Assembly (NCBI GenBank): GCA_964554105.1
Contig: CAZKNF010000013.1
Coordinates: 1-63,095, forward strand
Source: an uncultured Rhodothermales bacterium
GTDB lineage: Bacteria > Bacteroidota > Rhodothermia > Rhodothermales > VXPQ01
Direction of reading: 5' to 3'
DNA length: 63,095 nt
The notes below the pieces were generated by a model that did no database searches, had not been told where the DNA came from, and worked only from the letters and a program-made list of their open reading frames with translations. The position numbers and the translations under genes are program-made. This document shows positions 31,257-33,579 of this stretch, piece by piece. The number at the start of each line of letters is the position of its first letter. Position 1 is the first letter of the stretch.

Positions 31257-32453
31257 ATGGATCTATTCACCAGAGATGAGTTGGCTGAGCTCGCTCAAAC
31301 GCAATCCGGCCCTTGTGCCTCGATCTTCATGCCGACCTTTCACGTCGAATCGGAGCTCTCTCAGAATCCGATCAGGTTAAAGAACCTGATAAAGCAGACG
31401 CGCCAGGACCTACAGGAGGCAGGGCTTCGAGAGAACGGTATCGAATCCATGCTCGAGCCACTCGTGGCGCTCATGGAGAACACGACTTTCTGGCTGGATC
31501 AGAGCGATGGATTCGCTGCATTTTTGACAGGCGAAACATCCCGCGTATTTAGGTTACCGCTCAATTTCGAAGAGCTCGTCGTAACGGGCGACCAGTTCCA
31601 CCTCAAGCCCTTGTTTCCGCTGATTGCAGCGAACAACCGGTTCTACGTGCTGGCGCTGAGTAAGAATAACGTAAAGCTGTACCAAGGTACCCACTATAGC
31701 ATCACCGAAGTGGAGTCGACGGAAATTCCGAAGAGCATCCTCGACGTGATTTTCAATGAAGAGGATGATCGGAGCCTGCAGTTTCACACCGCAAATGTGG
31801 TAGGCGGCCGGCAAGATGCAGCATTTCATGGTCGTGGCGTCACCTCAGACGACGACGATCATCGGCCGCACGATAAAATTGTTCGATTCTTCCGAGAGGT
31901 TGATCACGGACTGGGCGAGACTCTGGGGGACGAGACGGCGCCTCTCTTGTTGGCAGGTGTCGAGTATTACCTTCCTCTCTACAAAGAAGTCAACAAATAC
32001 AAGCATCTGATCGACGATACAATCGTCCAGGGGAATCCTGACCACCTGAAGCCGCGAGATCTCCACGCTCGAGCGTGGGATCTTATCGAGCCGACATTTC
32101 TTCAGTCGCAGGACCGCTCGATCGAACGTTTCGAGCACCTCAACAATAATGGGCAGGGGCTTGCATCAGAGGACATCCATGAAATTGTACCCGGAGCCCT
32201 GTACGGGCGAACCGACACACTCTTCGTAGAGATTGACGCACATATCTGGGGAAACTACGATGAGGGTGCTAATACGATTGAAATGCACGAGACGCGCCAG
32301 GCGGGCGACAAAGATCTTTTGAATCTGGCAGCTGTGCAGACATTTCTACAGGGCGGCACCGTCCACGCGCTGCGCCCCGACACGATGCCGTCCGAGACGC
32401 GTGTTGCAGCGATATTCCGATATCCCGCCGGAGTACAGGCCGAGGATTCTTAA
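31257..32453 (+). CDS. Bacterial archaeo-eukaryotic release-factor-like protein (baeRF3/baeRF7-like)
   Basis: C.SIFMPT, IRLKNL, FHLKPL, FYVLALS, FHGRG, PLLLAGVE, GNPD, GRTDTL, AAIFRY pattern recalled for baeRF proteins; no GGQ. Confidence 0.8.
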   Translation: MDLFTRDELAELAQTQSGPCASIFMPTFHVESELSQNPIRLKNLIKQTRQDLQEAGLRENGIESMLEPLVALMENTTFWLDQSDGFAAFLTGETSRVFRLPLNFEELVVTGDQFHLKPLFPLIAANNRFYVLALSKNNVKLYQGTHYSITEVESTEIPKSILDVIFNEEDDRSLQFHTANVVGGRQDAAFHGRGVTSDDDDHRPHDKIVRFFREVDHGLGETLGDETAPLLLAGVEYYLPLYKEVNKYKHLIDDTIVQGNPDHLKPRDLHARAWDLIEPTFLQSQDRSIERFEHLNNNGQGLASEDIHEIVPGALYGRTDTLFVEIDAHIWGNYDEGANTIEMHETRQAGDKDLLNLAAVQTFLQGGTVHALRPDTMPSETRVAAIFRYPAGVQAEDS

Positions 32454-32527: not shown

Positions 32528-33490
32528 TCACTCGCTGTCGACGTCCCTTTTAACATGAATATAGTCGGCAGCGCTGTCCCGAAGCCGGTCGCGCTGATGC
32601 ACGTACATCATGGTGGTCTCGATGTTTTTATGTCGGGCGTGTGTCTGAACCTGTTGAATCGAGGCGCCGGCTTCAATGGCGAGCGTACATCCTGTGTGGC
32701 GCAGTGAATGGGCTCCAATCTCATCGGGGAGACCGGCTCGTCGTGCCGCTTTTTCGACGATGCCATAGATTGAACGCTCCGAGAGCCGATTTCCTCGGCT
32801 GTTGTTGCTGAGCGATCGCCACAGCGGACCCTCGCTGATCGCGTAATGCGTTTTCACCACCTCGATCTGCTCGACGACATGGGCCGGCATCTTGACGTAC
32901 TGGTCCGCGCCGCCCTTCGTATTCGGAAGGTCAAGCACCCAATAGTGGCCGAGCGGGCGGATGTGGTCTACGTTCATCGCAGCCGCCTCCGATCTTCGCA
33001 GGACACAATGGAGGAGCGTCGTTAACAGTGCTCGGTCACGCGCCGCTGCCTCGCCCGAGTCGTCCGCCGCACGCAGCAGGCGCTCTGCCTGCTGGGACGT
33101 AAGAAATATCAGCGTCTTATCGCGTGATCCTGCTGATCGCACACGCCTCAGGAGTTGTCGATGCGCCGGGTTCTTGGTAATGAGATCGAGCGCCAGGAGC
33201 CACTCAAAGAATCCGCGGATCGCTGCCGTCCGCCGCTTGATCGTCGACGCCTTGTAGCCTTCCTCCTGAAGCCGGGCTATATATTGGTTAACATCTAGGA
33301 ACGATACAACGCGTGCATCCGCGAGCGTCACATGTTCGAAGCCGAAAAAATCGGCGAGGTCGGCGCCGTAGGCGCGGCGAGTTGCAGAGCGATCGAATCG
33401 CTGCAGGTAAACCGGAATCAAGTCGACTTCACCATCTAGATGCGAGCCGACCAGCGTGGCGTAGGTGCCGAGGCTTTTATTTGCGTCCAT
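32528..33490 (-). CDS. XerC/XerD-like tyrosine recombinase
   Basis: N-terminal core-binding domain (S.ATRRAY..DL; STIKRR.AAIRGFFEWL; NPA). Catalytic R (LRRSE), K (TKGG), HxxR (HSLRH), H (HARH), Y (TMMY). Confidence 0.93.
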   Translation of the reverse strand: MDANKSLGTYATLVGSHLDGEVDLIPVYLQRFDRSATRRAYGADLADFFGFEHVTLADARVVSFLDVNQYIARLQEEGYKASTIKRRTAAIRGFFEWLLALDLITKNPAHRQLLRRVRSAGSRDKTLIFLTSQQAERLLRAADDSGEAAARDRALLTTLLHCVLRRSEAAAMNVDHIRPLGHYWVLDLPNTKGGADQYVKMPAHVVEQIEVVKTHYAISEGPLWRSLSNNSRGNRLSERSIYGIVEKAARRAGLPDEIGAHSLRHTGCTLAIEAGASIQQVQTHARHKNIETTMMYVHQRDRLRDSAADYIHVKRDVDSE

Positions 33491-33516
33491 CTGGCCCTTT
33501 TCGGAGTTTAGATCTT

Positions 33517-33544
33517 AGTTCCGATAAGAACTGTTATCGGAAGT
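33517..33544. other. dif-like 28-bp recombinase site (11-6-11 inverted repeat)
   Basis: AGTTCCGATAA-GAACTG-TTATCGGAAGT; arms 10/11 complementary; ATAA-N6-TTAT core as in dif/cer sites; 26 bp from the recombinase ATG. Confidence 0.8.
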
Positions 33545-33550
33545 AGAGAC

Positions 33551-33579
33551 AGTATAAAGATCCGTGGCTTTCAGATCAA
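33551..33579 (-). promoter_or_regulatory. sigma70-type promoter of the recombinase gene
   Basis: Minus strand TTGATC (33579-33574), 17-nt spacer, TATACT (33556-33551); predicted start about 33545, at the edge of the dif-like site. Confidence 0.7.

Follow-up and report, generated by a model that had tools for sequence, protein, structure and literature searches.

A probable one-recombinase Xer/dif module at the replication terminus of an uncultured Rhodothermales bacterium

The DNA described here is contig CAZKNF010000013.1 (C13) of GenBank assembly GCA_964554105.1 from an uncultured Rhodothermales bacterium; the whole contig of 63,095 nucleotides is referred to as the window, and the assembly comprises 3.82 Mb in 175 contigs and is 96.8% complete. 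The window carries a gene for a tyrosine recombinase of 320 amino acids (aa), preceded by a 28-bp sequence that resembles the recombination site dif. Gene and site probably constitute a chromosome dimer resolution (Xer/dif) system built from one recombinase and not from a XerC/XerD pair; they appear to represent a so far undescribed system of Rhodothermales in which one enzyme separates daughter chromosomes that are joined. An initial annotation of the window had proposed such a single-recombinase module of gene and site, analogous to XerS; computation lends support to this proposal through the linkage of gene and site, their position at the terminus and the lack of a competent partner enzyme. 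The features of the module are as follows.

32528..33490, minus strand: tyrosine recombinase gene (xer-like, 320 aa; clade B), with a core-binding SAM-like domain and a catalytic domain.
33517..33544, no strand assigned: dif-like recombination site, 28 bp, 11-6-11, AGTTCCGATAAGAACTGTTATCGGAAGT; an inverted repeat, unique in the genome, conserved upstream of orthologs and located at the GC-skew maximum.
33517..33527, no strand assigned: gene-distal arm, 11 nt, 10/11 complementary to the other arm; proposed binding site of one recombinase monomer.
33528..33533, no strand assigned: central region, 6 bp, the asymmetric spacer between the arms; proposed strand-exchange region.
33534..33544, no strand assigned: gene-proximal arm, 11 nt, complementary to and covarying with the distal arm; proposed binding site of a second monomer.
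33551..33579, minus strand: sigma-70-like promoter match, a consensus match only, with 9/12 hexamer matches (1 found, 0.2 expected).

The 28-bp site is separated from the ATG of the recombinase gene by 26 bp (33491..33516). Its 11-nt arms are complementary at 10 of 11 positions; if 12 nt are counted per arm, complementarity is 92% with a gap of 6 nt. Position, geometry and arm complementarity are those given by the initial annotation, which had also seen no second copy in the window. There the 9-6-9 core pattern, with up to 3 mismatches allowed, matches once against 0.02 matches expected from shuffled sequence. Across the whole 3.82-Mb genome the sequence at 33517..33544 is the sole match at fewer than 3 mismatches and hence a single-copy site; at 3 mismatches the pattern matches four further places and a backwards control pattern three. 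A pattern built from the exact arms was run against 41 Rhodothermales genomes. Of the 18 genomes with a match, 17 have one copy each at 0-1 mismatches, always beside the recombinase gene, and in the remaining one (G020) the site has 2 mismatches and lies 75 kb from its recombinase gene. The backwards control of this pattern gave no match across the 41 genomes.

The 320-aa protein matches the Pfam families Phage_integrase (E 4.8e-27) and the N-terminal SAM-like domain (E 2.8e-10), and no Pfam domain was matched beyond the core-binding and catalytic ones. Its catalytic set consists of R165, K192, H261, R264, H287 and Y296. In an alignment with 15 relatives and the solved structures of XerA (4a8e) and XerD (1a0p), five of these residues are invariant in 16 family members and K192 is nearly so. 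All six align to XerA 4a8e, the best solved-structure match (E 1.8e-13), and to XerD 1a0p (E 3e-11). Reading frame, Pfam and structure alignment agree with the first description of the protein as a tyrosine recombinase with the full R-K-H-R-H-Y set. The box residues noted then as unusual are real: the LRRSE context and HARHK are conserved signatures of the family, here called clade B. Against the curated NCBIfam models the protein scores 128.2 bits for XerC (TIGR02224, cut-off 335.15), 116.4 bits for XerD (TIGR02225, cut-off 329.6), 112 bits for XerA (NF040815, cut-off 220) and 52.6 bits for XerS (NF003462, cut-off 267). Since all four scores fall under the cut-offs, the enzyme is Xer-like yet belongs to none of these curated families. 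The public annotation of its relatives (721 proteins, E <= 1e-20) is generic, namely 'tyrosine-type recombinase/integrase', 'integrase' or the automatic 'XerD' of the Joint Genome Institute. As a separate observation, PDB chain 9i5v_14 (401 aa), labelled 'Ribosome-associated translation inhibitor RaiA', aligns over the whole catalytic domain to this recombinase as well as to the second recombinase-like protein described below; its active-site motifs are intact, and the RaiA label or the chain assignment looks odd.

Linkage of gene and site was followed in related loci from public genomes, of which the best 80 of 166 were used; these belong to Rhodothermales, Rhodothermia, Rubricoccaceae, unclassified Bacteroidetes or Bacteroidota bins and a few entries named 'uncultured bacterium'. 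A symmetric [AT]AA-N6-TT[AT] site (at least 8/11) occurs within 350 bp upstream of the gene in 51 of the 80 loci, usually at a distance of 20-350 bp. The density of such sites is 1.9 per kb in these 350 bp and 0.027 per kb elsewhere, and the 63 matches found in all compare with 0-8 in 20 shuffles. With 28 loci from the relatives search added, the sample comprises 108 loci, which represent fewer than 108 genomes owing to overlap. A symmetric GATAA-N6-TTATC site lies within 1.7 kb upstream at 83 of them, in 53 distinct sequences, so that the site seen once in the window is conserved upstream of related genes, a point the initial annotation had put forward for checking. A strict search for ATAA-N6-TTAT within 250 bp had detected the site in only 17 of the 28 loci, and a looser distance and symmetry raised the count.

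Half-site positions 7-11 (GATAA) are almost invariant among these sequences; positions 2-6 vary, and they vary together with the other arm. When sites were picked by the core alone, an arm matched the other arm of its own site at 4.09 of 6 outer positions and the arms of other sites at 2.83 of 6, and the covariation total was reached in 0 of 10000 permutations. The spacer is palindromic in none of the 53 distinct sites, and T is conserved at spacer positions 4-5. Matching arms that evolve together are predicted if one protein species binds both sides, and a spacer that is always asymmetric provides the polarity that resolution needs. Covarying arms and a never palindromic spacer fit a homomeric enzyme, which the near-identical arms had been taken to imply from the start; the covariation supports this reading on computational grounds.

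The site marks the replication terminus. The GC skew of the window is +0.045 to the left of the site and -0.034 to the right, the cumulative GC skew peaks between 30.7 and 34.2 kb, i.e. at the site, and contig C13 shows the largest positive skew excursion per kb among the 44 contigs of at least 30 kb. In ten of ten complete relatives from four genera the distance between dnaA and the module amounts to 0.40-0.49 of the chromosome (0.5 being exactly opposite), although seven of the ten belong to one genus and they are not ten independent trials. Within 400-kb stretches, site and cumulative-skew maximum are 73 bp apart in G020 and 5.2 kb apart in G031 (Roseithermus sacchariphilus). The word GGGNAGGG, which resembles an FtsK-orienting polar sequence (KOPS), points toward the site at 75:29, 74:28 and 43:14 in three genomes (192:71 together) and at 6:1 in the window, a bias that adds little and is not independent evidence because a G-rich word is skewed largely by GC skew alone.

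In the 400-kb stretches of G031 and G020, genome-specific 8-mers are strongly oriented toward the site (e.g. 83:2 and 64:1); these words probably stem from repeat families or arrays with a fixed orientation close to the terminus.

In the own assembly and four complete genomes, no family member other than the 320-aa enzyme was found to be catalytically competent. The window contains no PF00589 match besides it, and the genome contains two, the 320-aa gene and one on another contig:

Contig C4:7050-7868 (locus L031 3012..4226), minus strand: arginine-less recombinase-like gene (clade C), ~340 aa, with a PF00589 match.

The initial annotation had noticed no partner recombinase. For the window this stands; for the genome it does not, as a second tyrosine-recombinase-like gene is present, but one without the catalytic arginines. 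In all 12 copies examined of the clade C protein a serine replaces the first catalytic arginine and a threonine the second; the protein appears to be a conserved pseudo-recombinase. Four complete genomes (G008, G010, G011, G020) likewise contain exactly two PF00589 matches each, the ortholog of the 320-aa enzyme and the arginine-less protein. With the second protein devoid of the catalytic arginines, the 320-aa enzyme is the sole competent one in its own assembly and in these four genomes, with the caution that a gene could have been missed in a genome of 175 contigs and 96.8% completeness. A search of the genome for xerC and xerD, a check the initial annotation had envisaged, revealed no XerC/XerD pair. 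The clade C gene adjoins a 2-oxoacid dehydrogenase E2-like gene.

The arginine-less protein might still take part in a heteromeric system, as a non-catalytic partner of the 320-aa enzyme at dif, with one active subunit type. It is encoded in the own genome and in all 11 relatives examined (58-82% identity), it keeps the recombinase fold, with matches to XerD, XerA and XerC-like structures at E 1e-10 to 1e-12, and neither the own genome nor the four complete ones have any further family member. We nevertheless regard such a partnership as improbable. A protein bound to one arm should hold that arm constant and unlike the other, whereas the two dif arms differ from genus to genus in concert and resemble each other within a site. 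The arms moreover differ completely between the clade B genomes and genomes with another recombinase, clade A (see below), yet the clade C protein is highly conserved in both, and its nucleophile tyrosine is lost in 2 of 12 copies.

In the proposed one-recombinase system, two monomers of the 320-aa enzyme would bind the two near-identical 11-bp arms of the single dif at the terminus. On a chromosome dimer a homotetramer would synapse the two dif copies, Tyr296 would cleave where the arms meet the asymmetric 6-bp central region, and the dimer would become monomers through two strand exchanges, one after the other. Contig C3 encodes an FtsK translocase whose gamma domain scores 96.9 bits; it would be the likely activator at the septum. 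A dimer-resolution phenotype and dependence on FtsK would be expected.

The characters by which Xer/dif systems are recognized are present: core-binding and catalytic domains with the R-K-H-R-H/W-Y set, a site of ~28-31 bp with two inverted arms and a short centre in a single copy per chromosome, a position of the site at the terminus, at the skew switch and opposite the origin, and conservation of recombinase and site together in related species. The two active paralogs and differing arms of a XerC/XerD system were not found, the arms being 10/11 alike, and neither was the 31-bp site with 11-bp centre of XerS/difSL, the spacer here measuring 6 bp. Of the characters of integrases from phages or integrative and conjugative elements (an arm-binding domain, flanking mobile genes, a second att copy or a variable location) none was observed.

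The genomic neighbourhood bears on a further alternative, also raised by the initial annotation, according to which a plasmid or integrative element left the module behind near the terminus by chance, as a stranded integrase with attP/attB or resolvase with res. Cassettes of gene plus site are typical of mobile elements, some genomes contain paralogs at 44-49% identity, an insertion sequence (IS) with a DDE transposase and small open reading frames (ORFs) are inserted between site and gene in some relatives, and the site-side flank varies (DJ-1 in 3 and an ATPase in 1 of 107 related loci). The neighbours in the window, on the other hand, are of housekeeping type: miaA, MgtC, a baeRF-family protein, DJ-1/PfpI, a copper P-type ATPase with a CsoR-like repressor, an ABC ATPase and a LacI-type regulator. 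Over ~7 kb on either side no gene of phage, plasmid or transposon type was found, in line with the earlier observation that the window has no phage or transposon genes. The genome has no second copy of the site, the protein consists of core-binding and catalytic domains only, miaA adjoins the recombinase gene in 56 of the 107 loci, the family tree broadly groups close relatives together, and the module is found at or near the terminus in all ten complete relatives from four genera. A stranded mobile module is unsupported by these data and very unlikely.

Just as unlikely in our view is a purely regulatory inverted repeat, serving as operator for the recombinase itself or for another regulator, with the true recombination target at a different place or lacking altogether. 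The site is usually found 20-350 bp upstream of the gene, and in the window it stands between the promoter-like match, which ends 7 bp from it on the strand of the recombinase gene, and the start codon; it would sit at or just after the transcript start, and occupancy of dif could for this reason also throttle the gene. The two roles can coexist. In G020, however, where the gene is 75 kb away and the skew maximum 73 bp away, it is the site and not the gene that tracks the switch, which argues against a mere operator. In G024 and G013 the sites lie 3.6 and 1.6 kb from the gene, with other DNA between, and the 11-6-11 geometry, the always asymmetric 6-bp spacer and its conserved TT are those of a recombination core.

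An ortholog of the recombinase (best match E <= 1e-80) was found in 28 of the 41 genomes of the order, the own genome included. Five of the 13 genomes without one encode a different recombinase of ~300 aa, clade A (G001:C23, G003:C32, G007:C75, G021:C45 and G022:C9; loci L172-L175 and L201-L205), which scores 170-193 bits against the XerD model, still below the cut-off. None of the 41 genomes has both clades. In three of four clade A loci examined, a perfect 11-6-11 palindrome with a half-site different from that of clade B lies ~100-165 bp upstream; all four lie at or near a switch from positive to negative skew, the maximum being 1.9-15 kb distant. In a tree with E. coli XerC and XerD as the only references, clade A groups with these two (support 89/80), which also group with each other, and clade B stands apart. 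The tree proposed in the initial annotation has in this way separated clade B from XerC and XerD; its scope is this separation. Eight genomes have neither clade, five of them being 62-86% complete. Two genomes, G032 (C6 ~52600) and G034 (C21:29336), encode recombinases ~30% identical to the 320-aa enzyme, with an upstream palindrome of the same GATAA..TTATC core and a 7-bp spacer, and may represent a third variant of the module. In G038, which has neither clade, a search for an alternative module gave nothing convincing.

Mutual exclusion of clade A and clade B is expected of functionally equivalent alternatives. A wider interpretation, tentative and in our estimate rather doubtful, would be that the order Rhodothermales replaced XerC/XerD with terminus-located Xer/dif cassettes of one gene each, which are interchangeable. 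These would comprise at least two non-orthologous clades, and perhaps a third with the 7-bp spacer, each with its own palindromic dif and mutually exclusive, implying repeated replacement of the cassette and hence of a system essential to chromosome maintenance, while the arginine-less protein would be a retired second Xer with a new non-catalytic job.

Several observations weigh against the dimer-resolution reading. Thirteen of the 41 genomes lack the ortholog, four of them from the same family. The initial annotation had named a canonical XerC/XerD pair with a separate dif at the true terminus, combined with a patchy distribution of the gene, as what would speak against the role; the pair was not found in the genome. 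Extra paralogs with 44-49% identity occur in one genus (G012, G014, G015, G016, G017, G018), and the family is therefore not strictly single-copy. Among the 108 loci, 25 have no site inside 1.7 kb, three of these having no upstream sequence, and a broader palindrome search with spacers of 5-8 at 17 site-less loci gave nothing convincing. The site of G024 is displaced from the gene, as stated above, and the candidate site of G023 is on another contig. A whole-genome pattern search detected no GATAA-N6-TTATC anywhere in the complete chromosome of G041; in G042 it detected a less symmetric candidate ~100 bp away. In G013 a second, degenerate site copy occurs at a distance of 390 bp. The cumulative-skew maximum of G006 lies 59 kb from the site, across a flat plateau (400-kb stretch), and the contig of G034 shows no clear skew switch.

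The DNA between site and gene in G013 (L107, ~900-2950) contains 3.3 copies of a 40-bp tandem repeat as well as an IS-like gene (DDE_Tnp_1, E 2e-30), an arrangement that may be the trace of an insertion at dif. In three related loci, L132-L134, site and gene are ~800 bp apart, and an ORF of 219 aa on the opposite strand lies between them. G016 has a site-like sequence, with 2 mismatches, ~6 kb from its paralog.

Nearly all bacteria with circular chromosomes resolve chromosome dimers, and in the E. coli type two paralogous Xer enzymes act on two different arms. The present module shares with E. coli XerC/XerD-dif the domain architecture, the catalytic residues, the 28-bp 11-6-11 site, the ATAA..TTAT core and the single copy at the terminus, and differs in having one enzyme and matching arms, with 128 and 116 bits against cut-offs of 335 and 330. 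To our knowledge only a handful of one-recombinase solutions have been described, namely XerS, XerH, archaeal XerA and XerL. They are compared below, XerH and XerL by their published properties.

XerS/difSL of streptococci and lactococci is FtsK-linked and has one recombinase whose gene is immediately beside the site at the terminus (PMC5357621, PMC1914069). The likeness lies in the single recombinase and the gene-site module at the terminus. XerS has 356 aa, and the 31-bp difSL has an 11-bp central region and unequal, imperfect arms (PMC5357621), whereas the module described here has 320 aa, a 28-bp site, a 6-bp spacer and near-identical arms, and reaches 52.6 of 267 bits with the XerS model. 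XerH/difH of Helicobacter and Campylobacter is an FtsK-dependent system which likewise has a single recombinase and a site near the gene (PMC5357621); XerH is longer, with 354-362 aa against 320 aa. XerL/dif of Legionellales combines a single recombinase with long uninterrupted inverted-repeat arms and a site at the cumulative GC-skew maximum opposite the origin (PMC9765430). That paper credits the other known single-recombinase sites with partial dyad symmetry only (PMC9765430). Single recombinase, long inverted arms and skew maximum are shared with XerL; the gap between gene and site is 26 bp here, in contrast to dif and xerL of Legionella pneumophila, which are >400 kb apart, and Coxiella carries xerL on a plasmid (PMC9765430). 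XerA/dif of archaea resembles the module in its single recombinase and 28-bp dif, and XerA 4a8e is the best structure match; it differs in the model score (112 against 220 bits) and in that XerA acts without FtsK (PMC5357621), whereas the genome studied here encodes FtsK with a gamma domain.

No description of an Xer/dif system in Rhodothermales was found in the literature, with the reservation that the supplementary species lists of Kono et al. may include Rhodothermus or Salinibacter. In their 2011 paper, dif sites were predicted in 19 Bacteroidetes genomes with XerC/D assumed (PMC3025954), and Krupovic and Forterre 2011 state that dimer resolution was then unstudied in any Bacteroidetes (PMC3091885). 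The module would add a further one-recombinase solution that covers much of the order (28 of the 41 genomes searched), and it unites features that are separate in the known systems, i.e. near-perfect palindromic arms as with XerL and a gene touching its site as with XerS and XerH. The 53 distinct covarying sites with their enzymes form a ready data set on how tyrosine recombinases read half-sites, useful for engineering recombinase specificity, and the mutually exclusive clade A shows how an essential system can be swapped. In genomes and metagenome bins of Rhodothermales the site can serve as a precise marker of the terminus, and it is a likely integration target for Xer-exploiting elements.

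Directly downstream of the recombinase gene lies a further gene of the window.

31257-32453, plus strand: baeRF family 7 protein, 398 aa (E 6e-47).

A baeRF homolog is found next to the recombinase in 13 of the 107 related loci.

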